Assembly: GCA_964369165.1 (NCBI GenBank)
Contig: CAYJFE010000002.1
Location: forward strand, 6,647 to 55,277
Reading direction: 5' to 3'
Source: an uncultured Desulfovibrionaceae bacterium
Lineage (GTDB): Bacteria; Desulfobacterota; Desulfovibrionia; Desulfovibrionales; Desulfovibrionaceae
DNA length: 48,631 nt
Every line of letters starts with the position of its first letter. The stretch's first letter is position 1. This document shows, one piece after another, positions 17,593 through 48,631 of the stretch. The translations under genes and the position numbers were made by a program. The notes under the pieces are model-generated. The model searched no databases. It was given only the letters and a program-made list of their open reading frames with translations, and was not told where the DNA came from.

Positions 17593-17761
17593 ATATACTC
17601 CTTATTATTCTTCTTCTTTCAGAATATCTTATAAAAATCTCACATTCACAAAATTTTTACAAGCTGATTTTTTTCTCAGAATAAAGCCTATAATATGAAT
17701 AATAATTGTAAATAGATAGTTCTAATGTTTTTTTAAAAGATATTAATAAAGGAGATTGTTT

Positions 17762-19234: not shown

Positions 19235-19253
19235 ATATAAAAGGAAAATAGAT

Positions 19254-22676: not shown

Positions 22677-22680
22677 AGCT

Positions 22681-28917: not shown

Positions 28918-28918
28918 A

Positions 28919-29431: not shown

Positions 29432-29523
29432 AGAAAATCCTATTGTAAAGGTATAGCCATTGTAAAACAGCATTGTTTTAAATTACTTGATATGAGCAAA
29501 AGTGTCAAGGTAAAATGTGATTG

Positions 29524-30285
29524 TTAGAGGATTATTTCAGTGGTTTCAAAATGATAGATATTAGTATCTTTGTAAATGTCATCATCTTGAAAGCAAAAAG
29601 AAAGCGAATAATTTACAAGCTCTTTTCTGTGGCATAAAACAAAGTTTTTTTGCTTGTGTATTGCAAGATGAGAATTGTTTTTTTCTTTTGTGTGTGCAGT
29701 TGCAAAAATACTGCTTTGGTAAAATTCTTTTGCTAAAATAATAGAGGAGGGACTTATGCCAAGACCTGTGCCTAGAGCTTTGAGATAGGCTTCTTTCAAA
29801 GTCCAAATTCTATAAAAAAGCTTTGTTTTTTCTGTGTATGACATATTTATTTGACTTTCAATATATTCTTGCTCTTCTTTATGGAAAAGAAAGTCATAGC
29901 ATTCATTGAAAAGAGAAGTTTTTGTAATTTCTTCAATATCAATGCCGAGCGGATTTCTTTGTGTAATTTCACTTTGTGCTGAGAATATACCACAAGCTCT
30001 ATTGCCTGAATGCGAAAGGTTAAAAGAAAGAGGGAAGTTTGTGCAAAATAATTTGCCTTCTTTGCTTTTTTGTATATTTGCCTTGTGAAGATCAAAGCCG
30101 TAGTCTTCAAAGGCTTTTTGCAAAACTAAGCCAGCACCAAGCGAAAGCTTACGATCTTTAGGGAAAAGATAGCTATCACATTTTTCTTTACGCCATAAGG
30201 GAAGCGCATTATACGAATTTTCATACAATTCTTCATTGTCTAAAGCATCGACGTTAATGATATAAATTTTAGGTAGATGAGGCAT
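29524..30285 (-). CDS. Sfp-type 4'-phosphopantetheinyl transferase
   Basis: 253 aa. PPTase motifs FNLSHSG, GIDIEEI and WTLKEAYLKALGTGL (the W/KEA…K…G block). Confidence 0.85.
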   Translation of the reverse strand: MPHLPKIYIINVDALDNEELYENSYNALPLWRKEKCDSYLFPKDRKLSLGAGLVLQKAFEDYGFDLHKANIQKSKEGKLFCTNFPLSFNLSHSGNRACGIFSAQSEITQRNPLGIDIEEITKTSLFNECYDFLFHKEEQEYIESQINMSYTEKTKLFYRIWTLKEAYLKALGTGLGISPSSIILAKEFYQSSIFATAHTKEKNNSHLAIHKQKNFVLCHRKELVNYSLSFCFQDDDIYKDTNIYHFETTEIIL

Positions 30286-30288
30286 GGC

Positions 30289-31959
30289 TTAGAGTATTTT
30301 GCCCTCTGACATATGTATGATTTTGTCAGCATAAGAATGGTAAGAGTCGTCACGAGAAGCAATAATAATGCTTTTGCCTTGTTTTTTCATATAGGGTATA
30401 ATTTCTAAATAAAAATGCTGGCGAAATTCTTTATCAAAATCAGCTTCAATTTCGTCAAAGAGGTAGATATCTTTATCTTCTAAAAGAGCATACAAAAGGG
30501 CAAGACGCTTTTCTTCACCGCTTGAAAGGGGCATAAATTCAAAATCGTCATTTTCAAGATATTGCACTTTATGCATAAGTTTAACAAGTTTTGCCATTTC
30601 AAGAAAGGAGTGTGAAGAAGCAAGAATATTTGGATGCCTTGAAAAATGCACTTTTGAGGGCACAAAGGCAAAAAGATTTCGCCAATCCTCTAAGGTATAA
30701 GGAGCTTTTTCTGCATCATTATTTTCAAAAATTTTGTAATCGTTGAGAATAAAGCTTCCTTTTTCGGGTAGATAGAGTGTGCTTATAAGATTGAGAAAGG
30801 AACTTTTGCCAGAGCCATTATTGCCATAAAGCATAATAATTTCATTTTTATCTAGTCGAAATTCAGGAATTGAAAGTGAATAGACTTTGTCCTCTTCTTT
30901 ATTTCTGTAGGCAAAATACAAATTTTTTATTAAAAGAGATTTGAAGTTTGTATAGTCTAAATCATCTTTTTCCCATGAGTTTTCCACATATTTTCTTTCA
31001 AATTCTTCAATATCTTTATCAAGTTTTTTATCAAAATTATAAAGAAGGGTGATATTTGTTTCTACCTTAGTAAAGATAGGCACAAGGCTGACAATATTCA
31101 TAAGTGGTGTTATGCAAAATATCACTAAAACAAGTAAATGCGTCAATTCATTTAAAGAAAGTGGCGCTACCCAAGGCACTGCAAAAAGTAAAATACCTAA
31201 GATGGCAAGAGTGTAAGTCGAAAAGAAAGTCATGCCATGCGTGTGCGCGTTTTCTGTTTCTTCACGAAGCAAAGACGATCTTTTAAGGCTTGGGAAAAGC
31301 CAAGTTTGAAAAAGATAGACACTTTGTTTCAGGCTTATTTTTGTATCCATAAAAGCATCTTCAAAGTTTTGAAATTCATTTGAAAAATTTCTTTCTGTTT
31401 CTTTTGACATAAGAGTATAGGCCTTTGCATCTTGCACTATGCGAATATAGATAGTAAAACCTATGCCCATAAGAAGAAAAACTATGCACGCGCCAAGAAG
31501 TGATGTTGCAATCATTTGGGCTATAGCCACAAACATCATAACAGAATTTGAAAAGGCTGAAGTGAGAATACGCGCTACTTCCACCACCATTTCTTGCGAA
31601 TTATGCAAGATAAGCTGGCTGCTTTCTTCTTTTATTTTTGTAAAGTTTTGTAAAGAAAGTCCGCGTAATTTTGAAACAATGCCCATGCGTAATTTCGTGA
31701 CAGCACGTAAAGAGAAAATTGTCATTCTTTGTGTGCAATATTGAAATAAAGCATAGGATAAAAAAAGCGAGATGACAAAAAATAGAAGTACATATAATTC
31801 TATGCCATTGTGCGCTAATTGTTTCAAGCCTAAAAGAATACTTGAAAGAACAGCTCCTTGCGCTAATCCTGAAACAACACAAGCCAAGAGTACGGGCAAT
31901 TTTTGTTTGCCTGCTTCTTCAAAAAGCATAGAAAGAAAATGAGATTGTGGTGTTTTCAT
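30289..31959 (-). CDS. Fused ABC exporter (TMD-NBD), SyrD/PvdE-like cyclic-peptide transporter family
   Basis: 556 aa. N-terminal 6-TM domain. Walker A GNNGSGKSS, signature LSSGEEKRLAL, Walker B IYLFDEIEADFD. The ~550-aa half-transporter architecture is typical of NRPS-associated peptide exporters. Ends 3 nt before the PPTase start. Confidence 0.8.
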   Translation of the reverse strand: MKTPQSHFLSMLFEEAGKQKLPVLLACVVSGLAQGAVLSSILLGLKQLAHNGIELYVLLFFVISLFLSYALFQYCTQRMTIFSLRAVTKLRMGIVSKLRGLSLQNFTKIKEESSQLILHNSQEMVVEVARILTSAFSNSVMMFVAIAQMIATSLLGACIVFLLMGIGFTIYIRIVQDAKAYTLMSKETERNFSNEFQNFEDAFMDTKISLKQSVYLFQTWLFPSLKRSSLLREETENAHTHGMTFFSTYTLAILGILLFAVPWVAPLSLNELTHLLVLVIFCITPLMNIVSLVPIFTKVETNITLLYNFDKKLDKDIEEFERKYVENSWEKDDLDYTNFKSLLIKNLYFAYRNKEEDKVYSLSIPEFRLDKNEIIMLYGNNGSGKSSFLNLISTLYLPEKGSFILNDYKIFENNDAEKAPYTLEDWRNLFAFVPSKVHFSRHPNILASSHSFLEMAKLVKLMHKVQYLENDDFEFMPLSSGEEKRLALLYALLEDKDIYLFDEIEADFDKEFRQHFYLEIIPYMKKQGKSIIIASRDDSYHSYADKIIHMSEGKIL

Positions 31960-32008: not shown

Positions 32009-32839
32009 TTATTTGGCTAAAATGTCAACGCAATTTTTTGTGAAATCTGTGATGATACCTTTTACACCAGCTTCTAGCATAGTTTTTGCCTCTGCCATAT
32101 CATTCACTGTCCATACATTTACATAGATGCCTGCTTCTTCTAAGGCTTTTATTTCTTCATGCAAAAGAAGTTCTCTACTCGGGTGGTAGGCAAGAGCCTT
32201 TATTTCTTTACAGAGTGCTAAAGGATTTTGGGGTCTATTGTCTTCTACTAAAACTCCTCTTGGCAAGGTGGGCATGATTTTTTTTGCTTCATAAAGATAG
32301 ATATGCTGAAAGGAAGAAAGCAAGACACGCTCTGCCATTTCGCATTCTTTAATGCAGTCAATCACGTCCTTTGTTACTCGCTCATGCCCTATAAGAGGGA
32401 GATGATCTTTGATTTCTACATTCACAAACCAATTCAATTCCTTAGTAAGAAGTAGAGCTTCTTTGAGTGTGGGCACTTTGAGATTTTGAAAATTCTCCAC
32501 TCTCTCTTTGTCAAGACTTGCAAGTGTTTGGAAAGGATCAGTTTTTACAAACCATGAACCAGCATCTAAGTGGCGAATTTCTTCTAATGTGAAGTCACAA
32601 ACTTTGTAAGACTCTCTATCTGGGAACAAATCTTCAACATTTGTAGTACGACATAATGTGTCATCATGAATAACTACAAGCTCAAAATCTTTAGTGTAGC
32701 AAACATCTAATTCCCACATTTGCGCACCTAAATTATAGGCAAGATCTGCGGCATAAAGTGTGTTTTCAGGCGCGTGCGCTCTTGCGCCTCTGTGGGCTAC
32801 AGTAAGGGGCTTTGAACAAAGTGAGGGAATAAATGACAT
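32009..32839 (-). CDS. Glycerophosphodiester phosphodiesterase family protein
   Basis: 276 aa. The GDPD catalytic N-terminus (LTVAHRGARAHAPENTLYA…ELDVCYTKDFELVVIHDDTL) has the HR…E…D…H pattern. Confidence 0.75.
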   Translation of the reverse strand: MSFIPSLCSKPLTVAHRGARAHAPENTLYAADLAYNLGAQMWELDVCYTKDFELVVIHDDTLCRTTNVEDLFPDRESYKVCDFTLEEIRHLDAGSWFVKTDPFQTLASLDKERVENFQNLKVPTLKEALLLTKELNWFVNVEIKDHLPLIGHERVTKDVIDCIKECEMAERVLLSSFQHIYLYEAKKIMPTLPRGVLVEDNRPQNPLALCKEIKALAYHPSRELLLHEEIKALEEAGIYVNVWTVNDMAEAKTMLEAGVKGIITDFTKNCVDILAK

Positions 32840-32893: not shown

Positions 32894-35800
32894 CTAGATA
32901 GCATTTAAAGGTTTGTCTGGATAGGTAGACGCAATATCAAGGAATTTTACAAACATAGTCGCAAAGGCTGTGATGGTGTTTCTGTCAATAATTTCAGGAT
33001 TATAGTTGAAATTGAAGTCGTGCAATCCTTCGACAGTTAATGTGAGCGGGCTTCCTGTCATATTTACAGAATATACATTTTCTATATCTTTTGAATCTTC
33101 ATTGAAAGTGGGCAGATTTTCCATAATAAAAAGCACGTCAGACAAGTCATTCTTATAAGGCGTTTGCTCATAAATAGTTGAAGAAGCAATGGCTATATGT
33201 TCTTCTCTTTCATGGTTTTTTTCTTGGAAAAGTTTTGTGCGCTCTTTGAAAGAAAGCTCTGAGGTATATGGAAAACGGCAAGGAATAAGATTTGTAAAAA
33301 ATCCGACGCAAGTTTCAATGCCTTCCACTTCAGCAGGTCTTAATGAATAAATGCTATGGAAGAAAATATCATCATTTCCTGTATATACCTGCAAAATAGT
33401 CGCAAGAGCAGATTGATAAATGGTGCTCATTGTAAGATGGCAATCTTCAGAAAGTTTTTTACAACGCTCAACAATGACATCGTCTATATTGAAATTCTGC
33501 ACTTCTTCAGGATAAGGATCACCTTGATTGTAGGTAAAGTTTCTATTCACGCCATAGATATGCGTTGGCGCATAGACATTTTTAAGCTCATTTTTCCACC
33601 AATCGTGGTGCAAAGGAATGTCTTGTCTTTTGAGCCATTGTGAATAGTCACGCATATCAAAAGTATTTGTGCCAATATCGTCCTTTGAAAGATCGTCGTA
33701 AAAGACTTCTGCGCCCCATCTATCAAAAACAATATGCGTAAAAGTAATAGTCATATCAACTACAGTATCGCTGATTTGATAAAGACCAATATGCAAAAGC
33801 GTATCTTTTGAAATATCCACTATCTTTGCTTTGTGCATAGCTTTTTCATTGTCTATATATTGCCTTTGCTCAACAGTGGCTAAATGGCGTAAGTCTTTGA
33901 CAATAATGGATTCTTTTCTGTCTTTGAGTATAAGAGCGCGGGGCACATTGTCAATAATAGGGCAGACCATGCGCAAATTCTCATGCTTTTGCCACACATT
34001 CTTTGCTCTTGCTAAAAAGGTATCAATATCAAGTTCCTTGAAGCGATAATGCGATTGCTTGATATAGGTCGGCGCAGTGTGCGGATTCATGACTAAATCG
34101 TAATAAGTACGCAATTCTATAGCATTTAACGGACGGATTGATTCTATATCGCCATAAAAATCTAAGGCAGATTCAAGGCTTTTTTGCGAAATGCTTGCAT
34201 CGCCATAGTCTGCGCCAGTTTTTAAAGGCTTTTCAAGTGCAAGGCAATGCTCTAAAAGCTCTTCAATGCTCTTTTTATATTTTTCTAAAAGCTCTTGCTG
34301 CTCCCCATCTGAAAAAATATCAGTATCCATATTGAAGGCGCATTCAAGGCAATTATCTTCGCCAATTATGCAAGTGACAGAAAGTGGCGTTGCCATTGGA
34401 TGATTGTCATCACTGTAGCCATCAAGATCATAAAAAGTATATTGATTCTCGCTGCTTGCTGAATTGACTTGGCCTAAATAATTGAATTCAATATGCGAAG
34501 AAAGAAGGGGTATATTTTGCATTTTCAAATCAGTCAATACACCATAGCCAAGACCTTTATTTGGCACTGAGCGAAGCTTATCTTTCACAGCAAAAAGTGT
34601 TTGACCTATGCTTTCTTGTTTTTCTAAAACAACAGGGAAAAGTGAAGTAAACCAACCCACTGCGCGAGATAAGTCTATATCAAAAAATTCGTCACGCCCG
34701 TGCGATTCAAGATTGATTTGAATTTTATTATGCCCAGAAGGAAGATTACAAATATCAGCATGCACAAGGGCGGCTAGAAGAAAATCTTCCATATTCGCAT
34801 GATAGCTATTGATTCCCTCTAAGAGCATAGAAGAAGTAAGTTTTTGTGAAAACTTGAAACTTTGCGCCTTATAAGTTTTTTTGACTCTTTCTTTTTTTGA
34901 AAAGAACTTGCCTTGCAATTCACTTTCTGGCAAAGTGGCTTGTTGCCAATAGCTTATTTCGGCATCAAAGTTTGTGCTTTCTTGCAATTTTTGCATATAA
35001 TGCCCAAACTGGCTTTCTGGCATAAGATCTTCTTCAGTATTTAAATCGTCTAATAAAATACGCCACGAAATGCCGTCAACAATAAGATGGTGAATTGCTA
35101 GAAGAAGATAACTTTCAGAATTGTCTTTATTTGTGTGATAGCCTGCGATAAAAAGTTTGTTTTCAGCTAAAGAAATTTCGTCAATCAAGCGAGCTTTCAT
35201 TTGCATAATACTTTCATTTTCTTCTGCTGTGTGGAAAATAAAGAGATTATCTTCAGCATCTTGCACTCTTTGTTGCGGTATGCCTTTATTTTCTATGCAA
35301 TTAAAATGCACCCTAAGCATATCGTGTTTTTGCCAAAGTTCATAGCATTTTTCTCTTGCTTCTTCAAAGCTGAGATTTTCTTTTGTAACAATAGCAATTT
35401 GCGCAAATTTTTCAAGCGGACTACTACTGTCATTTATGGCAAGCGCATTATTTTTGAATTGACTCATATGGAAGAAGTGCTTTTGTATGGGGCTTAAAGG
35501 AACATCTTTGAGGGCTTGAGCGTAGAGATTTTTTTCTATAGGTTCTAAAATAAGCGCTAGTGTGGCTATGGTTGCGTATTTAAAGATTTCTTTCACAGTG
35601 CATTTATAGCCTTGCTGTGAAAGGCGAGAAATCGCTCTGATAGCAGTGATAGAATCAGCACCGAGAGCAAAGAGATTGTCGTTCACACTGATATTTTCTT
35701 TGCCCAACAATTGTCCCCAAATTTCAGCAAGAAGTATTTCTTTTTCGCTTGAAGGCGCAACTTTACTTTGATTTATACGCGGCTTTGGAAGGGCAGATAC

Positions 35801-38728
35801 AGAAATTTTTCCATTTAAAGTAATAGGTATAGAGTCAATAGGAGTAAAATGACGAGGAATGCCGTAAGATGGCAGTAAGGTCAAGAGATAATTACGTAAA
35901 TCATTTTCTGAAATACTTGTGCCTTCTTCAAGAATATACCAAGCGGCAAGACATTTATCTTCATTTTCTTGCTCAAAAGGTAGAACAATAGCGTCTTTAA
36001 TGTTAGGATAAGAGATAATAGCGTGAACAACTTCAGATGGTTCAATTCTATTTCCCGAAATCTTCACTTGATCGTCCACTCTGCCGAGGAAGATAAGCTT
36101 ACCGTCTTCATTCCATTTTGCTTTATCGCCAGTCTTGTAGCAATGACCATAGACTGGGTGTTTTATAAAGGCTTTAGCACTTTGTTCGGCGTCAAGGTAA
36201 CCCTGACTTACGCCCATGCCACCAATCCAAATTTCGCCCTCAGTGCCAAAAGGTAGCAGTTGACCTTTAGGGCCTAAAAGAGCTGTGATAACATTATGAA
36301 TAGGTCTACCTACGGGTACATTGCGATTTTCGTGCTCACTCATAAGATACATTGTCGCGCATACAGCAGTTTCAGATGGTCCATAGCCATTATATACCTG
36401 AACGCCATTTCTTATGCAAGGCAAGAGATATTCTAATGAGGCAGCTTCACCAGCTGAAACTAAATAATCAAGATTATAAAGGCTTGGGATAAGATTTTCT
36501 CTACCAAGCAAACGAAGATAGGCAGGCGGCAATATGGCAATTTTTGCATCTGCTTCTTGCAACCATGCGGCAAATCTGTGTACATCATTAATAATATCTT
36601 TGCTGAGAAGCACGGATTTTGCGCAAGCATACCAAGGAGTTAAAACATTCAATACCGCGGCATCAAAGGAAAAGCCAGCAAATTGCAAATAAGCTTTTCC
36701 TTTATGAATTTCAAAGCGCTTGCCATAGTCAACTACAGTATTAAGCATTGCTCTTTGCGTGGTGAAAGAGGCTTTTGGAGTGCCTGTTGAGCCAGAGGTA
36801 AACAGAATATAGGCATTATTATCAATGTCATAGCTTTCTGGTGGCAAAATATCTAGTAAATTAAAGTCTAGGCTTTGCTTTACATAATCTGAAGGGAAAA
36901 TATCTTTCATTTCAAGGCATGGAAAGTTAATGCCTTCAATTTTCTCTTCATTTTCTTCATAATCTATTATAACACAAGCAGGTTTTACACTTTCTAACAT
37001 AGAAATAATGCGCTTATGTGGCAAATCTTTGTCGATGGGAGCATAGATAGCATTCAAGCTTAAAATAGCCGGTAAAGTGAGTGTGCTTTCTTTTGTTCTA
37101 CTTCCAATAACTGCAATAATATCAGATTTTTGTATATTTTTTTCTTGGATTTTTAATGCCATATGCTGAGTAATAAAAGCAAATTCTCTCCAGTTGAGAT
37201 TTTGGACTTTATCATTGCTGTCAGGGTAGACAATAGTGGGTGCATTGGGTTCTTCTTTCGCCATTTTCTGTACAAATAGAGGCAAAGGTAAAAGTCCTTG
37301 ATGGTCAACTTCTCCGCCATGGGCAAAACTTTCAAGGATTTTCTTTTCTTGTTGCCCTATAAGCATAAGATCTTCGAGTGGAATATGCGTGGAAACAGCT
37401 AGAGATTTACACAGTTTCATAAATTCTTCAGCTATACATTCCATACGCGTGGTGGAAAATAAGTCTGTGTTATAATTGAAGTCTATAGTAAAAGCTTCAG
37501 GTGTGTCGATAATTTGAAAAACCATATCATAGCGTGAAACGGATAAATCATTAGAATCTTCAATATATTCAAGATCTAAGCCTTGCATTCTTGCCTCTAT
37601 TTCAATATGAGAAATATAGGTAAAAAGGCAATCAAAAAGAGGTGAGCGAGACATATCTCTTTCAACATCAAGTTCTTTTAAAATGCTCTCAAGAGGAACA
37701 GATTGATGTTTTAAAGCATTTTTTACAGAATTTCCAACACTTGTTATATAAGAAGACAGAGTGGACTTTGGCTTAAGAATATCGCGTATAGGCAACATAT
37801 TGATAAAACAGCCGATAACATTATCTTGCACAGATAGATTTCCAAAAGAGGAGTCCTTAGTTGTAATATTTCTACCCTGTACTGGCGTGCCAACTATAAT
37901 ATCAGTATTGTTAGTTTGCTTGTATAAAATGAGCTTTATAAGCGCCATTAAAAGAGAAAAAGGAGTGACTCCATGCTCGTCAGCCACTTCATACAATGTG
38001 TCAACTGTGTCCGCATCAAGCTCTTTTTTTATGCAATTGCCTTTAAAAGTTTGAGTAATAGGACGCGGATAATCAGTAGGCAAATCAAGAGAGACGAGAG
38101 GGCGTTTGAGATATTCTTTCCACCAGCTAAGTTCTTGTATAAACTCATCACTTTCGCGCCACTTTGCGTAATTGTCAGCAAAAAGGCCAAAGGAGTTATC
38201 ACTTGTTTTTTCAATAACTTGGTCTATCTTTCCATAAGTGTTGAAAATTTCAGCAATAAGAAAAGAGAGTGAAGTGGCATCGCTAATGATATGATGAATA
38301 TTGAAGAGCACAAGCCAATTTTCGCAAGCTTTATCTTTTGTGTCTTCATAAGGCAAGACAGCAACCCGCATCAAGGGGCCTTTTGAAAAATCAAAGTGGA
38401 AAAATTGATTTTCTTTGATATACCGAGCAGTTAGCTCGTCTACATCCTCATTTTCTTGACAAGAAGGTAAAATTTCGACAGAAAAATCCATTGAATCTAA
38501 CACACATTGCTTAGGATTGTCATTTTGAACAACAAAAACTGTGCGCAAAGCATCGTTTTGGGCTATGATAGTTCGAATGGCTATTTCTAGTCCATTGATG
38601 TCTAGACATCCCTTTACTCGGTAAGCGCAAGGTAGATTATAGACTTCGTGGCTGAGTTCCATCTGATCCAAAACCCACATTTTATGCTGAACTGGTGTAA
38701 GCTCGTAGAATTTTTTTCCTGTTTCCAT
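32894..38728 (-). CDS. Non-ribosomal peptide synthetase, terminal module: C - A - T - E - C(terminal)
   Basis: 1944 aa. Approximate domain spans (nt, minus strand):
- C 38728-37410: HHIISDATS.
- A 37350-35760: TSGSTGTPKAS, NGYGPSETAV, YKTGD, GRVDDQVKISGNRIEPSEV, NGKIS.
- T 35730-35520: LGADSI, with Ser present.
- E 35490-34140: PIQKHFF, HHLIVDGISWRIL, ESHGRDEF, FNYLGQV.
- Terminal C-like 34110-32894: active-site region TFTHIVFDRWG. Confidence 0.85.
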   Translation of the reverse strand: METGKKFYELTPVQHKMWVLDQMELSHEVYNLPCAYRVKGCLDINGLEIAIRTIIAQNDALRTVFVVQNDNPKQCVLDSMDFSVEILPSCQENEDVDELTARYIKENQFFHFDFSKGPLMRVAVLPYEDTKDKACENWLVLFNIHHIISDATSLSFLIAEIFNTYGKIDQVIEKTSDNSFGLFADNYAKWRESDEFIQELSWWKEYLKRPLVSLDLPTDYPRPITQTFKGNCIKKELDADTVDTLYEVADEHGVTPFSLLMALIKLILYKQTNNTDIIVGTPVQGRNITTKDSSFGNLSVQDNVIGCFINMLPIRDILKPKSTLSSYITSVGNSVKNALKHQSVPLESILKELDVERDMSRSPLFDCLFTYISHIEIEARMQGLDLEYIEDSNDLSVSRYDMVFQIIDTPEAFTIDFNYNTDLFSTTRMECIAEEFMKLCKSLAVSTHIPLEDLMLIGQQEKKILESFAHGGEVDHQGLLPLPLFVQKMAKEEPNAPTIVYPDSNDKVQNLNWREFAFITQHMALKIQEKNIQKSDIIAVIGSRTKESTLTLPAILSLNAIYAPIDKDLPHKRIISMLESVKPACVIIDYEENEEKIEGINFPCLEMKDIFPSDYVKQSLDFNLLDILPPESYDIDNNAYILFTSGSTGTPKASFTTQRAMLNTVVDYGKRFEIHKGKAYLQFAGFSFDAAVLNVLTPWYACAKSVLLSKDIINDVHRFAAWLQEADAKIAILPPAYLRLLGRENLIPSLYNLDYLVSAGEAASLEYLLPCIRNGVQVYNGYGPSETAVCATMYLMSEHENRNVPVGRPIHNVITALLGPKGQLLPFGTEGEIWIGGMGVSQGYLDAEQSAKAFIKHPVYGHCYKTGDKAKWNEDGKLIFLGRVDDQVKISGNRIEPSEVVHAIISYPNIKDAIVLPFEQENEDKCLAAWYILEEGTSISENDLRNYLLTLLPSYGIPRHFTPIDSIPITLNGKISVSALPKPRINQSKVAPSSEKEILLAEIWGQLLGKENISVNDNLFALGADSITAIRAISRLSQQGYKCTVKEIFKYATIATLALILEPIEKNLYAQALKDVPLSPIQKHFFHMSQFKNNALAINDSSSPLEKFAQIAIVTKENLSFEEAREKCYELWQKHDMLRVHFNCIENKGIPQQRVQDAEDNLFIFHTAEENESIMQMKARLIDEISLAENKLFIAGYHTNKDNSESYLLLAIHHLIVDGISWRILLDDLNTEEDLMPESQFGHYMQKLQESTNFDAEISYWQQATLPESELQGKFFSKKERVKKTYKAQSFKFSQKLTSSMLLEGINSYHANMEDFLLAALVHADICNLPSGHNKIQINLESHGRDEFFDIDLSRAVGWFTSLFPVVLEKQESIGQTLFAVKDKLRSVPNKGLGYGVLTDLKMQNIPLLSSHIEFNYLGQVNSASSENQYTFYDLDGYSDDNHPMATPLSVTCIIGEDNCLECAFNMDTDIFSDGEQQELLEKYKKSIEELLEHCLALEKPLKTGADYGDASISQKSLESALDFYGDIESIRPLNAIELRTYYDLVMNPHTAPTYIKQSHYRFKELDIDTFLARAKNVWQKHENLRMVCPIIDNVPRALILKDRKESIIVKDLRHLATVEQRQYIDNEKAMHKAKIVDISKDTLLHIGLYQISDTVVDMTITFTHIVFDRWGAEVFYDDLSKDDIGTNTFDMRDYSQWLKRQDIPLHHDWWKNELKNVYAPTHIYGVNRNFTYNQGDPYPEEVQNFNIDDVIVERCKKLSEDCHLTMSTIYQSALATILQVYTGNDDIFFHSIYSLRPAEVEGIETCVGFFTNLIPCRFPYTSELSFKERTKLFQEKNHEREEHIAIASSTIYEQTPYKNDLSDVLFIMENLPTFNEDSKDIENVYSVNMTGSPLTLTVEGLHDFNFNYNPEIIDRNTITAFATMFVKFLDIASTYPDKPLNAI

Positions 38729-38734
38729 TTGTGT

Positions 38735-40567
38735 TTAGCTCCTGTCAATATATTCGGCAAGCTCTTGAATTGTATTTTGCTCAAAAAAGTGTTGTAAGGG
38801 GATATTTATTCCAAAAGCATTATAGATAAGCGAGAGAGCCTTTATGCTTCTTAGGCTATCGCCTCCAAAAGAAGTGAAGGAAATTGAAGTGCTTATCTTC
38901 TCACGTCCAAAAAGTTCTTGCCAGATAAGGCAAAGTTTTTCTTCTGTTTCTGACTTTGGTTCTGTGTAGGCAAGGTTAGCATAGAACATAGCATCAGGTT
39001 TTGGCAAAAGACGCTTATTCACCTTGCCACTTGTGGTGTAAGGGATTTTTTCAATAGGGAAAATCATTGAAGGCACGAAAGCAATTGGAAGTAATTTTAG
39101 CAAAATACTTCTTATTTTTTCATTCGCATCTTCACTTGTAACATTGCAATTTTCTTTTAAAACTACATAGGCGATGAGCATTTTTTGCTTATCATTATTT
39201 TCTTCATTACTTGCATTCACTTCAAAGGCGGTAACACTTGCATCTTGAATAAATTCAATATCTTTAATAGCAAATTCAATTTCACCAAATTCAATGCGAA
39301 CGCCATGAATTTTAACTTGATTGTCACGCCTGCCGAGGCATTCAACTGTGCCATTTTCAAGGTAACGACCCATGTCACCAGTTTTATAGACTATGTCATT
39401 TTCTTCATTCGTGAGAGGATTTATAATAAAAGATTTTTTATTTTCTTCTTCGTTGCTAATATAACCATTTGTTTTGTAAGGTGTTCTGATATAGATTTCA
39501 CCAATTTCTAAAGTGTCGCAAAGTCTGTTTTCATCAAGAATAAGTAAAGACGTGTTAGAGATTGGTTTACCAATTGGCAAGAGAGTATTTTCCTCTTCGT
39601 CTAAGTTTTCTGGAACAGAATAAAAAGCTTTAGCCAAAGTTGTTTCAGTAGGGCCATAGATATTCACACACTCAAGCTTTAGAGCTTTTGCGTATTTTCT
39701 AAAATTGAGAATATCTCTTGAATAGAGGGGTTCGCCAGCGATAAGAATATATTCTAATTCAGGCAAAGTGATAGTATTATCGCGTAAAGAATTGGTAAGT
39801 AAGCGCAAAACAGTAGGAATACAGTGCACTAAATTCACACGCATTTTAACCAACCATTCAGCCAAAAGATGAGGAATAGTGCGCTCTTCCTCGCTTGGAA
39901 TGCACAAAGTTCCGCCTATTAACAAAGGCAATAGTGTGTCACGCAAAGAAACGTCAAAAGTGATTGGGGCGAGCCAAGAAGTTCTTATTGAATTTGACAG
40001 TGAAAATTCTTCAACTTCCCAACGCAAGAAATGTGCAAGGCCTTTATGATTGCCTAATACAGCCTTTGGTTTTCCTGATGAGCCAGAAGTGAACATGACA
40101 TAGGCTGGATCGTTTGGACCAACTTGAATGTCAGGTGTGTTTTCAGCTCTTTCATCGTCTATAAATATGCATGATATTGAATAATTTTCAAGCTCAGCAA
40201 GAAGTTCATTCAATCTTTCTTCAGGAGCTTTTTTTGAAATTAGAACTGTCGTACAATTTGTAAGTGTCAGATATTCTTTGATTCTTTTAGCTGGAAACTG
40301 CACATCAAGAGGCAAGAAAGCATTTCCTGATTTTGCTATACCTAAAAGCCCAAGAATATATATTTCATCTGCAAAGCTGTAAATACCTATGATTTCAGAT
40401 TTTTTATCGACCAGTTTTTGTGCTAAAGCATTAGATCTTTCATGCATTTCTTTATAACTCAGAGCTAAGCCCTTTGAATTTTCCATTGCCTTTACGTCAG
40501 GATTTTTTAAGGCACACTCAGAAATATGCTCAAAAAAAGCTTTCTTCTTATCTAAAATTATATTCAT
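38735..40567 (-). CDS. Stand-alone NRPS adenylation-thiolation (A-T) didomain protein
   Basis: 610 aa. A-domain cores FTSGSSGKPKAV, YGPTETT, YKTGDMGRY, GRRDNQVKIHGVRIEFGEIE, SGKVN. C-terminal carrier FGGDSLRSIKAL. RBS AAGAGGA. There is a 6-nt gap to the downstream NRPS. Confidence 0.85.
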   Translation of the reverse strand: MNIILDKKKAFFEHISECALKNPDVKAMENSKGLALSYKEMHERSNALAQKLVDKKSEIIGIYSFADEIYILGLLGIAKSGNAFLPLDVQFPAKRIKEYLTLTNCTTVLISKKAPEERLNELLAELENYSISCIFIDDERAENTPDIQVGPNDPAYVMFTSGSSGKPKAVLGNHKGLAHFLRWEVEEFSLSNSIRTSWLAPITFDVSLRDTLLPLLIGGTLCIPSEEERTIPHLLAEWLVKMRVNLVHCIPTVLRLLTNSLRDNTITLPELEYILIAGEPLYSRDILNFRKYAKALKLECVNIYGPTETTLAKAFYSVPENLDEEENTLLPIGKPISNTSLLILDENRLCDTLEIGEIYIRTPYKTNGYISNEEENKKSFIINPLTNEENDIVYKTGDMGRYLENGTVECLGRRDNQVKIHGVRIEFGEIEFAIKDIEFIQDASVTAFEVNASNEENNDKQKMLIAYVVLKENCNVTSEDANEKIRSILLKLLPIAFVPSMIFPIEKIPYTTSGKVNKRLLPKPDAMFYANLAYTEPKSETEEKLCLIWQELFGREKISTSISFTSFGGDSLRSIKALSLIYNAFGINIPLQHFFEQNTIQELAEYIDRS

Positions 40568-40601
40568 ACTATCCTCTTATCATAGACTTTTTTAATATTT
40601 C

Positions 40602-43600
40602 CTACCAACCATCGCCGTCATCATCGCTTTGCATAAGCAAATCTTCACGAGTAAGATTGATAATAATTTCTTCTTGCTTAAATGATTCAATAATCTCAGA
40701 AAGTTGCACTTGATTATTTTCCAAAACTTTTGAAGTGAGTTTAACGAAGTCTAACATGAGTTGACTGATAAAATCTTCATCAAAAATTTCAGTGTCGTAC
40801 TCCATAGTAAAGAGTATGTCTTGTTCATCATCAAATTGATATTTCAAATCATAGCGAGCACTTATACTTCTGTCACTCAATACTTGACTTTCAATGTCTG
40901 GCAAATCAAGTGCTAAAGCTTCGTTGTTTTGAAAAATAAGTATAGCATCAAAAAGAGGTTGGCGCCCTTTTTCTACCGCTAGCGCTAAATCAGACACAAT
41001 GCATTCAAAAGGATAGCTTTGATGGGCAAAAGCATCAAGAATATGCTCTTTCACTCCTGCCATATAATTCATAAAGCTCACATTTGAAGCTATTTGCGTG
41101 CGAATTGGCAGCATATTGAGCATAAAACCTAAGGTATTTTCAATTTCTTCAAAATCTCTGCCTGCAACAGGACTTCCTAGTACAATATCCTTTGATTTTG
41201 TCAAGATGTGCATTTGTAAACTAGCAAGCGCGTGGAAAAGCATAAAGGGGCTTGCGTTGAGCTTCTTTGCTAAGTTTCTGATATCTTTTGAAAGTTTTAA
41301 GCCTAAAGCTTGTGAGATTAATGCGCCTTTGCCACTTCTTTGTGAAGGACGTTTTATTCCAATATATTCAAGAGCTTTTGGTAATTCTTCATAGATATTC
41401 ATCCAATATTGCTTCGAGGCATCAAGCTCGTGCATATGCTCTCTTTGCCATTTGGCATATTGCCCATAACTCATAATTTCAATTTCATCTTCATCAACAT
41501 CAAAGCCTTTGATTTTTCTATAGTTATTTTCAATATCTTTCATAAGAATATGAGCAGACCACCCGTCGCCAAGTATGTGATGCAGATTGAAAATTAGATA
41601 ATATTCCTTTGTTTTTTCATGTGCAAAAAGACGAATGTGATAGAGCTCTTGACTAGATAAGTCGAAGATATAGTTCATTTCTTCTTCATATATCTTTTCT
41701 ATAAAATCATCATTGATATAACTTTCTTTAATAAGTGTAAAGATTTTTTGGCTTTCCACTTTTTGTACGGGATGTCCGCCTTGCATATCAAAAGAAGTTC
41801 TGAGGCTTTCATGTTTTAGTATGCTGAGATTTATTGCTTTTTCTAGAGAATCACAATCAAGTTCTCCTATGAGTTTGAAGCCTCCCACCATATTATAAGC
41901 CGCAGAATGTGGATTTTTTTGCTGCCAAATCCACATACTTTCTTGAGCAAAGGATAGTGGATAAGTCTGAGTATTCGAGAGCTTATCCTGTGTATTCTCA
42001 TTTTCTATTTTTGAAATAGCTTCTTTTGAGTTTGCGCTTGAAGCTTGCATTTCTATGAGATGGCTAGCTAGCAAGATTGGCGAAGGTGCAGCAAAGAAAT
42101 CTTTCAAGCTAAGCGGATAATTTAATTTATTTTTAATACGCACAACAACTTGGTTTGCTTTAAGGCTATGGCCGCCTATATGGAAGAAATTATCGTGTTT
42201 TTCAATTGTTTCAATTTGTAAAACTTCTTTCCAGATTTCTATAATTCTATCACTAAGGTCTTGTTCTTCTTCGCTTATTTCTTGTGTTGGAGTATAGTCG
42301 TCTACAAGCTGTTCCCATGTTTGAGAAAGCAATTTCTTTTTATCGGCTTTACCATTTTTAGTAAGTGGAATTGCAGGCACAATTTCAATTTTGCCAGGAA
42401 TCATATAATCTGGTAAGGCTTGCGTCAAATATCTTTGCAAACTTTGCGCAGAAATTTCTTCATTCAGCACTATATAAGCTGCTAATAATTCACCCATATG
42501 CTTGTCTTCGCCACTACCTAAAATTGGCATAGCGACAGCATCCTTAATGCTTGGATGCGAGATAAGCGCATGCTCAACTTCGCCAAGCTCAATTCTAAAA
42601 CCACGAATTTTTACTTGATCGTCCATTCTGCCAAGATACTCTATCATGCCATTTTGGCAAACTTTGCCTAAGTCGCCAGATTTATAGAGTTTGTGTCCTT
42701 CGATTTGTACAAACTTTTTGGCAGTTTCAAGCGGATTATTGAGATAACCTCGGCTCACACCTCCGCCATAAACGCAGATTTCACCAACTTCTCCGCGTGG
42801 AGAAATTTTTCCTTCTTTATCCATAATTATAATGCCCCAAGAAGGTAAAGGACGGCCAATAATGCTTTGACCTTTTTTGATTTCTTCTGAAGCAATTTTT
42901 GCCCAGGTGACGTGCACAGTGGTTTCAGTAATGCCATACATATTGATTATTTCAACATGGCCAAAGCTTTTATGCCATTCAGCTAAGCGCGCAGGACGCA
43001 ATGCTTCACCACCAAAAACAAGATAGCGAAGGCAATTGAAGTCTAAGGATGAGTTTACCATGTAGTCTGATAATTCGTAAAATGCTGTCGGGGTGAGATT
43101 TAATACGCTCACTTTTTCTTCTTCGAGCATTTGTGTGAAAACATCAGGTGCGGCGGCCACATCTTTTGATATAATCAGCAATTTACCACCAAAGAGCAAT
43201 GCTCCATACATTTCCCAAACAGAAAAATCGAAGCAAGGCGAGTGGAACATCGTCCATACATCTTGCGCATCAAATGTGAAGATGAGATTTTGCTGGAAGA
43301 GAAGATTATATACATTTTGATGCTCGATGACCACACCGCGCGGAGTGCCTGTCGAACCTGAAGTATAGATGACATAAGCTGCTGATTCTGCTGTGTTTTT
43401 TATAGAAAGAGCTTTTTTGTTATCGTCTAAATCTTCCATAAGAATAATGCAGAAATCCTCTCTTTTAAGGTCAGCGTTGAGAAGAATTTTATAGAGAAAT
43501 TTTGAATGTGCTTCGTCTGTAATAATTATCTTTGCTTCACTATTTTTAAGAATGTATAAAATTCTATCATCAGGATAGCTTGGATCAATTGGAATATAAG

Positions 43601-46600
43601 CCTTGCCAGCTTTTAGCACACCCATAAAGGAAGCAGGAATATGCCATGAACGATCAAGAAAGGTTGCAACCCATTGATTATCATTATTAATTAGTGTTGA
43701 AGCTTTTGCTACAATAGTATTTGCTATACGATTTGATTCTTGATCAAGCTCTTTATAAGTGATTTCTCGATTTGCATCCTTAATAGCTATATTTTTAGGG
43801 AATTTTTTTGCAATTTGAGCAAATTTTTCATCTAAAGTCATGGGGATAAGAGGCAAATGCTTAGATGATTGCGCCATGATGCTAGATATATCAAGTTTTT
43901 CGTTTTCTAAAAGCACATCAAGAGAGAAAATTTTTGTGCTTTGCTCTTGTTTAGAGGCAAGATAATTAAGAATTATTTCAAAGCGTTGAACAAATTCTTC
44001 AGCTGTCTTGTCGTCAAACAGAGTTTTATTCCATGAAAGCGCAATAGTGCCATCTTCCCTTGCCATACAAACAAGATCGTATTTACCAAAACCTAAGGCC
44101 GTGAGAGGAGTGTTGAGTGTATCAAACTTTGATTTTGTCGTGTCTTCAACAAAAAGTACGTCAAAGAGGGCAGTACGGCTCATGTCATTTTGCGGTTTTA
44201 CGGCAATAACTAGCTGATCAAAAGGTATATTTGCGTGCGAAATTGCTTCAAGTCTTTGCTTTTGTAGATTTAATTCTAATTCACTTAAGCTTGAATCTTG
44301 TGAAATTATACTACGCAGAGGAATAAGCTGTAGCATAGGTCCTAAGGGCAATTTTGCTGTATCGCAGTCAAAACTATCACTTTCTTTATGCTCGATAACT
44401 TCGCCTATAACAATATCATCTTGTAAGGAAAGTCTATGTAAAAAGGCGGCATAGCCAGTGCGAATTTTATCTATACTTAGAGGCGCAATTTTGAAAGAGG
44501 CATAGCCTTGTTCATAGATATGCACAGCTTGTCTGGGATTGTCATAAGGCAGGGTAAGTTTGTCAATTCCTTCAAGTTTTTCCTTCCAATAATGTGCATT
44601 CTCTGTGTTTAGCCAATCTTTTTTCCTTTCTTCTTCGGCTTTTGTGGCAAAGTTTTCAAAGTCAGTGTAGGGAAGAAGCTTGTAGGATTTTTTTGTTTCA
44701 TAATCAATTAACTCTTCGGAATTAATGATTAAATCAAGCAGCTCGTCGCACAAGATATTCAAGGTGCGATAATCTGCTATGCTATGGTGCATACTTAGTG
44801 CTAAGTTTTTCCCGTCTTTTGTAAGTATCACACGCGCAAGAGGGGCTTTATCTAAATCAAAGGGGGCTTGCGCTTTTTTGATAATTTCTTCTCTAGAATT
44901 AACCATAATTATAGGTAACTGCGGAATATTTCCTTTGATCATTGAAGGCATTGCATTATCTGTTTGGCTTGCCTCCATAGAGAGTGAGAAGAGCGGATGG
45001 CGCTGTGCTAAAATATCTATAGCCTTATGAATTTTATTACTTTCTATGGCAAAATCAAGCTCTTTAATAATAGGCATAGTATAATAAGTAGGCGCGTGAC
45101 TATAAAGAACATTTTTTTCAAATCTATCGACAAACCACAAGCGTTCCTGATGGAAGTTTGGCACAAAGATTTCTTCTTGCCTTGGCAAAGAGCCATCAGC
45201 CTGATTGAAAGCTGCAATAAGTTCATTAAACCAAATTTTTACAGTGCTTTCCATGTATAATTCATCGTCATACGCAAGCTTGAGAGCGATATTTTCGCCA
45301 TCTTCACTGACATTAAGCAAGAAATCATATTGCGCGGAAGGTGTGTCGATTTCCTTTGCATCCCAAGCAACTTCGCGGAGTGGAGGCAAAATATCGTTGC
45401 GGCTGTCTTGTACAAGAACAACATCGACCAAACCTCCTCTTTGCACGAGAGGAGAATTCTCTTTGGCAATTGCATTCATAAGCGTATGTGAAGGCACAAG
45501 TTTTTGTGAAGATTCCAATATTGTTTTTTGTGTGTTGCGCACATTTTCAATAAAAGTTTCAATGGCTTGAGCTTCAGCGCTTTCAGAGTCTAGCGTCGTG
45601 TCTGTAAGCTGGAGGCAAAGAGGGAGCACTTCAACAAAAAAGCCCATAAGATTTCCTGTAAGTGGGTGTGTTCTACCCGCATGAGCAAGGCCAAAGCAAA
45701 TGTTTTTATTCGCTATTTTTTCGCTGAGCCACTGTGCCCAAATAGTGCTGATTACAGCAAAAATTGTTGAATTTGCTTTTTCTGCTATGAGGGCTAACTT
45801 TTTTATACCTTCTTGTGAAAGGCTAGCGTGAAGATTTTTTCCTGTAAATTTGGCTTGACTTGGTCTTTCAAAATCAAGCGGAAGTGTGCATCTTTGCGCT
45901 TGCTTTAATCTTTGGATTGTCCAGTCTATATGGTCAGTATTACTTACATTTTCTAAGGACCAAGCGGCATAATCTCTAAAGCGTATACGTGGTGCAGGTG
46001 AGAGAGCTTTGTCGTGGTATATCGCAATAAGTTCTTGAATTAATATGCCAAATGACCAAACATCGCACACTGAATGGTGTATAGAAATAATCAGCCAATC
46101 TTTTGCATTTTCTTCACCATTATTTCTAAAGATTTTTGCTCTCAAAAGTGGAGCTTTTGATAAATCAAAGGCTTGAGCAACAAAAATTTCTGCATCGCGC
46201 TCAGGATTATCGCTCATGACTCTTTCAAGTGAAAGAGGAGGATTTTCTTCAATATATTGACGAGCTTGCCCATCTTCATCAACAAAGGCTGTGCGCAAAA
46301 CATCATGTCTTTGCATAATAACTTTCAATGCATAGAGAAGTTTTTTCTCGTCAAAATTTTCTGCAATAAAGGCGAGGCCAATATTATATACGCATAAACC
46401 AGGTTGGATTTGATCATGCAACCAAAGCCTTGTTTGCGGTGAACTTGCGGCGTAATTTTTTGCTTCTGCTAGAAGTGGAATGGCAAAGGCACTTGCCTTC
46501 GTTTGTGAGGCACTATAAGACTTTTTTCCAGTGCTTCCTCCATTCGCATCATTCATTGGAGGCGTTGGATCTTTATCAAACCAGCCATCATCAGCCATGG

Positions 46601-48631
46601 CTTTCACACCTTTTTCAATAGCAGAGATGATTTTTTCAATATCATTATCTGTGTGCTCAGTTGACAAGAAGCAGTTACGCCCTTCCCAAACAAAGATACC
46701 GGCTTTGAGTAGGTGGAAGTTCAAAATTTCAGAATTTTCCCTGAAATCAAAACGGAAGAGTGAGGAAAAATATTCAGTTTTAATAGGTGCTTTATAGCGT
46801 GCAAAAATTTCATCTAAGCGCTGACACATTTTCTTCGTTTTTTCAGCAAGCTCTTTTTGCAAAGCGCCATTATCATCAATAATACGCTTCAAAACAGCTT
46901 CTGCGGCAATCATTGATAGAGGGTGCTGGCTAAAAGTTCCTGCTACAAAGGCTGTGTGCGCAGTAGGGAGTGAAGTGTCGTCATAATTCCATTTGCCGCC
47001 ATCAACAGCATCCATAAATCTATTTTTGCCTGCAACCGCACCTACAGGAATGCACGCGCCTAAAACCTTGCCATAAGTGACAATATCCGCTTCTATTCCC
47101 CATAATTCTTGCATTCCTCCAGGGCTCATGCGAAGACCTGTGATCATTTCGTCAAATATAAGAGCAATATCGGTAGACTTTGTAATATCACGTAATTCTT
47201 TGACAAATTTATAAGGTTGTAAGGCAGGATTTCTACTTTGTATAGGTTCTACTAAGACTGCGGCAAGTGAATCTGCATTATTTTTGATAAATTCCAAAGC
47301 CTTAGGATCACCGTAGCGAAGTACGATAGTGTCTTCGACCATGCCTTGTGTTGTGCCATCAGTTATTGGAAGTGTGGTGTAGCCTTGATTATCAGCATTT
47401 GCCCAGCCGCTTGCAAGAACAGCATCAAAAGAACCGTGGAAAGAATTTGCAAAGACGACAATCTTTTGCTTTTTCAACACAGAACGTGCAAGGCGAACCG
47501 CTACCATAACGGCTTCAGTTCCTGAAGAGAAGAAGGCTACCCTATCAGTTTTTGTGAGCGAGCAAAACATTTCTGCCACTCTACCATTTACTTCGTGGTG
47601 AGGTCCAAGTCCAAAGCCGTCATTCAATTCTTTTTTAATGGCATCGCTTACAAAAGCAGGGGCATGGCCAAAAAGACCTGCGCCAAAAGAGCCTGTAATA
47701 TCGACATATTCTCTGCCGTCAATATCCCAAACGTGCGCGCCTTGTGATTTGGTGACAACCAATGGATAGATAAGATTTTTCCATTCAGGTTTAAATCCAA
47801 TCATAGAGCGTGGACCAGCTAAATGCTTGCGATCACGAATGGCTAATTTCTTTGAATTAGGGCTAAGAGCAGTCCATTCCTTTGTAAGCTTTTCGATATG
47901 CGCGAATTGCTTTTGTGTGAAGTTGCTTCTTGAGGTTAAATCTTTAAATAAGCCTTTAACCTCAGTTTTCGCAACTTTTGTTTCTTGAATAGGAGTTTTT
48001 TGAGCTATTGCTATGCTATCAGTTTTTTTTTTTACTTCGCCTTCTTGCAAAGGTTGCGCATTTTGTGAAAGCATAGAAAGCTGTTGAGCAAAAATGTTTT
48101 GCATGGCTTCTACTTGTTTGATAAGAACATTTTCAACAGCAGAACTTGCTACTGCTTGGCTTGCAGGTTGAGTTTGTGTTTCATATGCATATACAGGAGC
48201 TTGCGCACTTTCTACAGGCGCACTGACAACTTGTTCTGTCACTACTTCTTCTGTAATATAGGCTTCATCGCCAAGGCTTTGCTCTGCCATAAAAGTAGCA
48301 AGTTTTCTTGGAGTATCAAGTGGTTGGAAGAAATCATTCACTTCTGGCGCAAAACCAAATTCAAGATTTAATCCTTGTGTTACTTGCACTAATACAAGAG
48401 AATCAAGTCCGAGTTTGAACCAAGAATCGTCTTGTAACTCATTTTGCACATCTGCGCCTATAATCTGAGTCAAGAGAGAAAGCACACTTGCTTCAAGTTC
48501 TTGTTTTTTTGGATTTTCTTTTCTTACAGTAGAAACAATTTTTTGCGTATTTTGCGCTACTGGAGCTTGCATTACAGGCTCTTGAATTGTATGTGCCACT
48601 GTGTTTTGTGTTTGTGTGCTCACATTTGTTT
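40602..48631 (-). CDS. Hybrid NRPS megasynthase, 5'-partial (runs off the window): …ACP - class-III aminotransferase (AMT) - C - C - A - T - C
   Basis: More than 2673 aa. The frame is open to the window edge; the track start at 48623 is only an in-frame GTG. Approximate domain spans (nt):
- ACP 48500-48300: LGLDSL.
- AMT 47880-46580: GSA-aminomutase-like, PLP-lysine TYGKVLG.
- C 46480-45175: HHSVCDVWS.
- Second C-like 45175-43855: MHHSIADYR.
- A 43825-42325: [53 protein letters not shown].
- T 42280-42070: GGHSL.
- C 41980-40602: HHILGDGWS.
The protein ends …DDDGDGW. Confidence 0.85.
   Translation of the reverse strand, partial: [2675 protein letters not shown]

Follow-up and report, generated by a model that had tools for sequence, protein, structure and literature searches.

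A probable beta-aminoacyl peptide assembly line with a tandem condensation module in an uncultured Desulfovibrionaceae bacterium

The DNA analysed here, called the window, is a stretch of 48,631 nt from contig CAYJFE010000002.1 of an uncultured Desulfovibrionaceae bacterium (assembly GCA_964369165.1). Its minus strand carries three consecutive nonribosomal peptide synthetase (NRPS) genes, g1, g2 and g3, the first of which fuses a carrier protein to an aminotransferase (AMT). An earlier note, made from the sequence alone, had read the three genes as ACP-AMT-C-C-A-T-C, A-T and C-A-T-E-C (ACP, acyl carrier protein; C, condensation; A, adenylation; T, peptide carrier; E, epimerization), and this reading was borne out exactly by the open reading frames (ORFs), Pfam and matches to solved structures. 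The genes and their domains are as follows (PKS, polyketide synthase; PLP, pyridoxal phosphate).

40602-48623, minus strand: g1, synthetase ACP-AMT-C1-C2-A1-T1-C3; 2673 aa from GTG 48623, 2656 aa from ATG 48572
48620-48622, minus strand: TGA stop of the upstream gene, in another frame (..KQM, then stop), overlapping the g1 GTG (GTGA)
48279-48506, minus strand: N-terminal ACP of g1, PKS-type, GLDSL with Ser75 (Pfam; g1 residues ~40-115)
46566-47930, minus strand: AMT, class-III PLP aminotransferase, PLP lysine in TYGKVLG (PF00202; MycA AMT 6kfm/6kfu, E 5e-122)
45225-46502, minus strand: C1, HHSVCDV, next domain after the AMT; C domains of this type come behind the AMT in P0004/P0437 and before C(c) in P0360-63
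43884-45185, minus strand: C2, of the C(c) class described below, FHQERLWFVDRFE..., HHSIADY, NDMSRTALFDV, GFGKYDL (structure and profile comparison)
42348-43820, minus strand: A1, code DFWNVGMVHK (Thr) (Pfam, code alignment)
42057-42251, minus strand: T1 carrier, GGHSL (Pfam, motif)
40665-41972, minus strand: C3, LCL-like, HHILGDG, at the end of g1 (TycC, 179 bits)
38735-40567, minus strand: g2, stand-alone A2-T2, 610 aa (Pfam AMP-binding and PP-binding)
39023-40516, minus strand: A2, code DVRHLAILAK (Pfam, code alignment)
38747-38941, minus strand: T2 carrier, GGDSL (Pfam, motif)
32894-38728, minus strand: g3, C4-A3-T3-E-C(terminal), 1944 aa
37334-38713, minus strand: C4, LCL-like, HHIISDA (structure search)
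35555-35731, minus strand: T3 carrier, GADSI, the form usual before E domains (Pfam)
34235-35506, minus strand: E domain, HHLIVDGISW, ESHGRD, FNYLGQ (TIGR01720, 74.4 bits against a cut-off of 74.2)
32897-34222, minus strand: terminal C, DCL-like, THIVFDR; best matches are the post-E C domains of BacC, PvdL and TycB, and SrfA-C

The domains were called with Pfam on g1-g3, followed by domain-by-domain cuts that were compared with solved structures, and the structure search returned the order ACP-AMT-C1-C2-A1-T1-C3 / A2-T2 / C4-A3-T3-E-C(terminal). The Pfam E-values ranged from 1e-11 to 1e-181, far beyond chance. In g1 there were two PP-binding domains, Aminotran_3 at residues 287-613 (E 1.5e-48), three Condensation domains (E 5.6e-181) and AMP-binding (E 2.6e-81), and in g3 three Condensation domains (E 6.5e-174), AMP-binding and PP-binding. 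With TIGR01720 added for the E domain, the HMMER calls supported every AMT, C, A, T and E assignment. The g1 frame is free of stops from GTG 48623 to the end of the window. A gene in another frame stops just upstream, at TGA 48622-48620, and a public protein collection holds the exact g1 product starting at ATG 48572 (2656 aa, P0359). Thus, g1 is a gene of its own that begins with the ACP.

The catalytic motifs were intact throughout. HHxxxD was found in C1, C2, C3, C4 and E, and xHxxxD in the terminal C, together with the PLP lysine, the serine in four of four carrier domains and the A-domain core motifs A3, A5 and A10. The elements of a canonical NRPS elongation module (A core motifs, carrier serine, HHxxxD in the C domain) were all present. 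The cluster is real and intact, and it is probably functional.

Residues 232-686 of g1 matched the AMT and ACP-AMT structures of MycA (6kfm, 6kfu) over their full length with 411 bits, whereas the score against free glutamate-1-semialdehyde aminomutases (GSAM) was only about 170 bits. The PLP lysine (TYGK) was aligned in the structure comparison. A carrier (GLDSL) lies directly upstream of the AMT, and C1 begins about 20 residues downstream. By sequence similarity, the g1 AMT is of the assembly-line (MycA) type rather than the free GSAM type. The Aminotran_3 group is the commonest PLP domain within NRPS and PKS lines, where it usually follows a carrier protein, and the AMT of MycA moves the amine from Gln onto an ACP-bound beta-keto thioester (PMC3870968). 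The long linker between ACP and AMT, rich in Q, A, V and E, contains a conserved, helical-looking segment, ..QVEAMQNIFAQQLSMLSQ.., at about 48054-48137 of the window (g1 residues ~163-190). It has a counterpart in P0001, P0003, P0016 and P0109, and a similar stretch is found at the end of the ketosynthase-acyltransferase (KS-AT) protein of locus L084; the segment may be a docking or dimerization element.

MycA, ItuA and BamA have in common with g1 an ACP-AMT didomain that is followed by C-A-T, and among solved structures the g1 AMT is closest to that of MycA, with an identity of about 45% that was estimated from the alignment rather than computed. In MycA a beta-keto thioester receives its amine on the ACP, and an NRPS module then takes over the beta-amino acyl chain (PMC3870968); the logic of g1 is the same. 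However, MycA is a single protein that also contains acyl ligase, ACP and KS, whereas g1 starts at the ACP. Iturins have seven residues, with Asn first and a thioesterase (TE) cyclase, in contrast to the three A domains, Thr first, extra C, terminal C and lack of a TE seen here. The iturin/mycosubtilin-like logic proposed in the earlier note therefore held for the mechanism, while membership in the iturin family was rejected on the number of A domains, the missing TE, the other residue order and an ACP-AMT that begins its own gene.

C1 and C2, which stand in tandem after the AMT, were divergent, scoring 104 and 79 bits against their best matches among solved C domains, and both kept HHxxxD. 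A word-indexed search was made with C1-C2 and a HMMER scan of 1.84 billion representatives with AMT-C1-C2. The word-indexed matches were at most 33% identical, and each spanned one C only. C1 matched the C domain that precedes the second C of the homologues' pairs, and C2 matched that second C, which we refer to as C(c). The marks of the C(c) class are HQERLWF(V/I)DxFE, HHxxAD, NDMSRTALFDV and GWGKYDL, and it was found in the window at 43884-45185, in loci L088-L167 and in P0249, P0360-63 and P0447. A scan of JGI metagenomes with the C(c) alignment returned 241 stretches that encode relatives, and the best 80 loci of the 241 were mapped. In nearly all of these 80 loci, C(c) lies directly after a C-type domain and directly before an A domain. 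Where the code of this A domain was readable, it was of the Thr type, DFW(N/S/C)xG(M/L)(V/I)H, in 69 of 72 cases. The H, H and D of the C(c) motif were invariant in all 81 aligned copies, with the canonical Gly replaced. The order AMT-C-C(c)-A-T was present in at least 12 mapped loci. Across the 80 metagenome loci the C-C(c) pair sits within modules of the usual T-C-C(c)-A-T form that have no further carrier, so the tandem does not require one. On this comparison of sequences, the C-C tandem is a recurrent and conserved module form and not peculiar to this cluster.

Interface (I) domains, known from siderophore and myxoglucamide NRPSs and covered by antiSMASH 8 profiles, are C-like, follow a normal C directly before the A domain of one module, lack HHxxxDG and occur in beta-hydroxylating modules (PMC13638107, PMC12230676), where they are paired with beta-hydroxylated Asp, His or Glu (PMC13638107). 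C2 occupies the same slot between the C and A of one module, but its catalytic motif, HHSIAD, is kept, and it was not assigned to the I domains. Unlike them, C2 and the 80 metagenome copies have the invariant H, H and D and a Thr-type A domain, and no partner oxygenase is encoded in the window. C2 was likewise not taken for a heterocyclization domain, as it carries HHxxxD and not DxxxxD, nor for an E domain, as its likeness to solved E domains was weak or absent. A literature search on the C(c) motifs found no paper describing the class, which may be described in literature outside that search.

The specificity codes were extracted, as the earlier note had proposed, by alignment to the GrsA Phe-A sequence, which was checked by its canonical positions, which read DAWTIAAICK. 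The code of A1, DFWNVGMVHK, is given as Thr (PMC9113097). A literature search returned no match for the codes of A2 and A3. The A2 domain as a whole scored 422 bits against LgrA 1228-1797, its second A-T unit, but the specificity-bearing core did not show that likeness, and LgrA was therefore not used to call the substrate; A2 and A3 were left unassigned. Arg at position 239 of A2 could be a pocket filler or a binder of an acidic group. The A3 code resembles hydrophobic or aromatic codes.

C3 and C4 are ordinary LCL-like domains, and each matched the PCP-C structure of TycC (2jgp) with 179 bits. The E domain had its best structure matches among the E domains of BacC (bacitracin synthase 3), PvdL, TycB, GrsA and TycA, and because it also carries the three motifs listed above and passed TIGR01720, we called it as an E domain. 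The terminal C, the last NRPS domain in the window, was nearest to BacC 450-829, PvdL 534-921, TycB and SrfA-C. In it THIVFDR replaces HHILLDG, with the second His and the Asp kept. Its DCL-like type is as expected from the position after an E domain.

The earlier note had named this domain as the probable catalyst of release or cyclization. In loci L088, L104 and L111 the assembly line likewise ends in a C domain with no further NRPS gene after it. The ending is therefore a trait of this group, which supports release of the chain by the last C. Release by a terminal C is known in bacteria but uncommon (PMC5640695). The crocacin, FK520, C-1027, Legionella and glidonin lines have a C as their last domain, with no TE or reductase (R) domain (PMC5640695, PMC10587159); unlike in those lines, the terminal C here is DCL-type, directly follows an E domain and has Thr for the first His.

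Three genes follow g3, as the earlier note had described, and two further ORFs adjoin them (GDPD, glycerophosphodiester phosphodiesterase; PPTase, phosphopantetheinyl transferase; SD, Shine-Dalgarno).

32009-32839, minus strand: GDPD (PF03009, E 2e-44), 54 bp after g3, with an SD-like AAGGAG
30289-31959, minus strand: fused permease/ATPase ABC exporter (best NCBIfam TIGR01194, cyclic peptide exporter)
29524-30285, minus strand: Sfp/HetI/AcpT-type PPTase, 253 aa (PF01648 with the N-terminal domain PF22624)
27637-29473, minus strand: 184-aa ORF and SPFH/Band7 protein, after the PPTase with 50-bp and -1-bp spacing; cluster membership uncertain

The GDPD, PPTase and ABC exporter were all confirmed. 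For the exporter, which the earlier note had called SyrD-like, the best family was TIGR01194 (SyrD/PvdE type), matched over the full length with 173.7 bits under a curated cut-off of 286.2; the protein resembles this family and is not a certified member. The PPTase had its best NCBIfam matches in HetI, AcpT and AusB, all under the equivalog cut-offs, and it shows the two-lobed form, 253-aa length and ACPS domain of an Sfp-type enzyme. A literature search for a link between GDPD and NRPS found nothing useful. The 184-aa ORF has a signal-like N-terminus and no family match, and the SPFH/Band7 protein has a long tail rich in Pro, Ser and Asn.

From g1 through the SPFH gene at 27637 the intergenic spacing was -1 to 54 bp, and for the assembly-line cluster it was 3-54 bp. 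Terminator-like sites were no commoner than in shuffled sequence, and the promoter and terminator scan was uninformative. The tight spacing and the lack of a terminator excess are compatible with a single transcription unit, and g1-g3 and the downstream genes are probably co-transcribed. SD-like motifs were found upstream of 14 of the 25 window genes. The G+C content was low, as the earlier note had stated, and uniform over the window (0.35-0.41), with the cluster equal to its flanks, so there was no compositional sign of recent transfer.

The window proteins that were successfully looked up formed singleton clusters at 90% identity in a collection of 15 billion proteins. The best ACP-AMT match in an index of 5.8 billion proteins was 44% identical, the best whole-protein relatives were 37% identical, and a scan of a genome collection with ACP-AMT gave no match. 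The genomic contexts of the closest single-domain AMT matches, P0002 and P0003, were unrelated. On the basis of these searches the cluster is an orphan with no close orthologue. The earlier note could name no known product, and its statement stands on the absence of close homologues and on the literature searches. CobQ, encoded elsewhere in the window, had relatives of 84% and 82% identity in two metagenome-assembled genomes (MAGs), GCA_964371865.1 and GCA_964370245.1, both with the same order of cob genes. Among named organisms, the nearest relatives of CobQ were from Bacteroidota, at 66% identity or less. Bacteroidota were rejected as the host because SD-like motifs are frequent in the window and because ribosomal protein S9 of a related MAG scored 155-158 bits against its top solved-ribosome entries, the gammaproteobacterial 6v39 and 7unr (Acinetobacter and Pseudomonas), compared with 117 bits against 7jil (Flavobacterium). 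In both MAGs (L001, L002) cobQ is directly followed by HAD and Opp transporter genes and not by gad or NRPS genes, and the gad genes and everything beyond the HAD gene are therefore not syntenic. The cluster was absent beside cobQ in both, at least within 10 kb.

The HMMER scan with AMT-C1-C2 found homologues that share the architecture. P0361, P0362 and P0363 read FAAL-ACP-KS-AT-ACP-AMT-C-T-C-C-A-T-C (FAAL, fatty acyl-AMP ligase), and P0360 is the same from the AMT onward. P0437 is KS-AT-ACP-AMT-C, and P0422, with the closest AMT among these (58% identity), is FAAL-ACP-KS-AT-ACP-AMT. Locus L088 has the exact string AMT-C1-C2-A1-T1-C3, with an AMT 63% identical to that of g1. P0360-63 have in common with g1 the C1-type and C(c)-type domains, an A domain with the Thr code, a T, an LCL-type C and an acidic '...GW' tail, which in g1 reads '...DDDGDGW'. 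The identities to P0360-63 were 52-55% for the AMT, 41-45% for the A domain and 29-35% for the C domains. In most members of the P0360-63/L088 group there is an extra C-T between AMT and C1 and a fused FAAL/PKS part, several continue with an AsnB-type gene and end there, and none has the g2/g3/GDPD set. All are high in G+C and unannotated, with no product linked to them.

An AsnB-type asparagine synthase gene was seen directly after the AMT synthetases in several metagenome loci unrelated to one another, L088 (7698-9650), L104 (12128-14011), L111 (15947-17827), L132 (14453-16312) and L087 (13154-15070). In L088, L104 and L111 the C-domain end comes immediately before this gene, and in L104 an Asp/Glu racemase gene follows it. 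The window cluster has no AsnB and has g2, g3 and GDPD instead.

The reading that we favour, and hold to be probable though by no means secure, is that the cluster forms part of a hybrid (PKS-)NRPS line making a beta-aminoacyl peptide, and that this part is intact and probably co-transcribed. The proposed route would begin with a beta-ketoacyl chain made by genes just outside the window, FAAL/ACP/KS-AT by analogy, and this chain would be carried by the N-terminal ACP of g1. The fused PLP aminotransferase would then convert it to a beta-aminoacyl thioester, as expected from the homology to MycA. C1 and/or C2 would join the acyl carbonyl to Thr on T1, in keeping with the Thr code of A1, and C3 would then add the residue supplied by the stand-alone A2-T2 protein, as co-linearity suggests. 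C4 would next join the chain to the A3 residue, which the E domain would epimerize to D. The terminal DCL-type C, for which the window shows neither a carrier partner nor a TE or R domain, would release the chain either to a free amine or alcohol or through attack from within the molecule, where the nucleophile might be the free beta-amino group or the Thr hydroxyl. The PPTase would prime the four carrier domains, and the ABC transporter would export the product, for which the minimum would be beta-aminoacyl-Thr-X-D-Y. The earlier note had predicted a short lipopeptide or aminoacyl-peptide of about three residues with one D residue. The three A domains and one E domain agree with this, but the lipid part is a prediction, and three residues are a minimum, since FAAL, KS and AT are absent from the window and predicted from homologues only.

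The combination of FAAL, KS and AMT is a general motif for beta-amino-lipopeptides (PMC4989320, PMC4219810). The puwainaphycin (PuwC-E) and ralsolamycin (RmyA) lines have a FAAL, a PKS module and an AMT followed by an NRPS module (PMC4219810, PMC4989320), and in the former the FAAL, ACP and PKS parts are spread over several genes (PMC4219810). Both differ from the window cluster in having a monooxygenase beside the AMT, many more modules and release by a TE. In L084 the gene directly before that for ACP-AMT-C encodes KS-AT, and farther upstream there is a gene that includes a FAAL. From the architectures of L084, P0361-63, P0422 and P0437, FAAL/ACP/KS(-AT) is, by analogy, the most likely content of the DNA upstream of the window, and a fatty-acyl start is likely.

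Several points weigh against the favoured reading. No FAAL, KS or AT is encoded within the window. The source contig is 63,392 bp long, and in the 14.7 kb of it beyond the window there could be more NRPS modules, a TE or the acceptor on which the last C acts. Four carrier-bound units are served by five condensation-type catalysts, so the role of at least one C (C1 or C2) must differ from simple extension. The homologues also differ, most of them in having a C-T that separates AMT from C1 and an AsnB-type gene, both of which the window cluster lacks.

The same 14.7 kb leaves room for a microcystin/nodularin-type logic, in which unseen upstream modules would deliver a longer polyketide or peptide-polyketide and the product would be a larger hybrid. 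ACP-AMT does occur in many PKS/NRPS contexts, such as AT-ACP-AMT, KS...ACP-AMT beside carbamoyltransferase and GNAT genes, and next to luciferase-like oxygenases. However, the homologues with C-C(c)-A(Thr)-T-C-'GW' all begin with FAAL-ACP-KS-AT, that is, with a single extension of a fatty acyl chain, and 14.7 kb is too small for much beyond that set. We regard such a larger product as unlikely.

A2-T2 may also act out of order, with C1 joining the chain to the residue on T2 and C2 passing it to Thr-T1, which would give acyl-X-Thr-... and leave C3 or C4 surplus. In g1 no T separates C1 from C2, and A-T is available as a free protein. P0360-63 have, after the AMT, a C-T that lacks a functional A and then C-C(c)-A(Thr), and in L084 the ACP-AMT-C protein is followed by a free carrier protein. 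In contrast, the T-C-C(c)-A-T modules of the 80 metagenome loci have no extra carrier, the LCL-type C3 that ends g1 must have an acceptor too, and the g2 gene lies precisely between the coding regions of C3 and C4. This non-colinear order appears somewhat more doubtful than the larger hybrid. A decaying or silent cluster with no product, which the lack of an orthologous cluster and the related MAG contigs without the cluster beside cobQ might suggest, is highly improbable given 15.7 kb of uninterrupted reading frames, every checked catalytic motif intact, a dedicated PPTase and exporter and a G+C content equal to the flanks.

The favoured beta-aminoacyl peptide line is an AMT-containing hybrid NRPS and belongs to an already known type of lipopeptide machinery. 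It adds a compact, complete-looking example of beta-amino-acyl peptide biosynthesis, and its lineage has hardly any relatives with sequenced genomes. Its most interesting element is the conserved C(c)-Thr module form, and the compact cluster could help to explain C(c). It offers a small test system for the role of the conserved extra C-like domain before a Thr-specific A domain, and for the release of a D-configured peptide by a terminal DCL-type C without a thioesterase. Should a gut or sediment anaerobe be the producer, the compound could be a lipopeptide that acts on membranes.

A bolder and rather speculative proposal, to which we give a small chance, is that C2 represents an undescribed, catalytically competent C-like class (HHxxAD followed by R/K or another residue for Gly). 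In hundreds of uncharacterized synthetases the class would be an obligate insertion that separates a Thr-specific A domain from the normal C before it, and it would carry out a second reaction on the Thr module, such as side-chain acylation, dehydration or gate-keeping. The DCL-type C would pass the chain to a free nucleophile, for which the co-transcribed GDPD might be the source, and the resulting beta-amino-lipopeptide conjugate would be of a new type, made by a bacterium whose lineage is almost unsampled.

Below the cluster the minus-strand array runs on at 21861-27401 with a pair of overlapping ABC_sub_bind paralogues, a protein of 852 aa whose MFS domain is confined to residues ~493-776, and a Formyl_trans_N protein. 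A DNA-alkylation-repair-like ORF, gadC and gadB (16888-20603) sit between cobQ and the HAD gene. The cbi/cob genes, gadC and gadB that the earlier note had given as context were confirmed, and the anaerobic-type cbi genes fit an anaerobe; its proposal of a host-associated organism found no such backing, as nothing ties the two related MAGs to a host. Rfam, searched over the whole window (1-48631), had no family at gathering score, and even a cobalamin riboswitch was missing, although cob/cbi genes fill about 17 kb. A CbiK-like cobaltochelatase (27-1094) is extended by about 40 residues at its N-terminus, and its score of 124 bits is far under the equivalog cut-off of 400. CbiF, CbiG and CbiH are fused in one protein of 874 aa (7223-9847), and the same fusion, with 876 aa, was found in the related MAG L001 (16907-19537).

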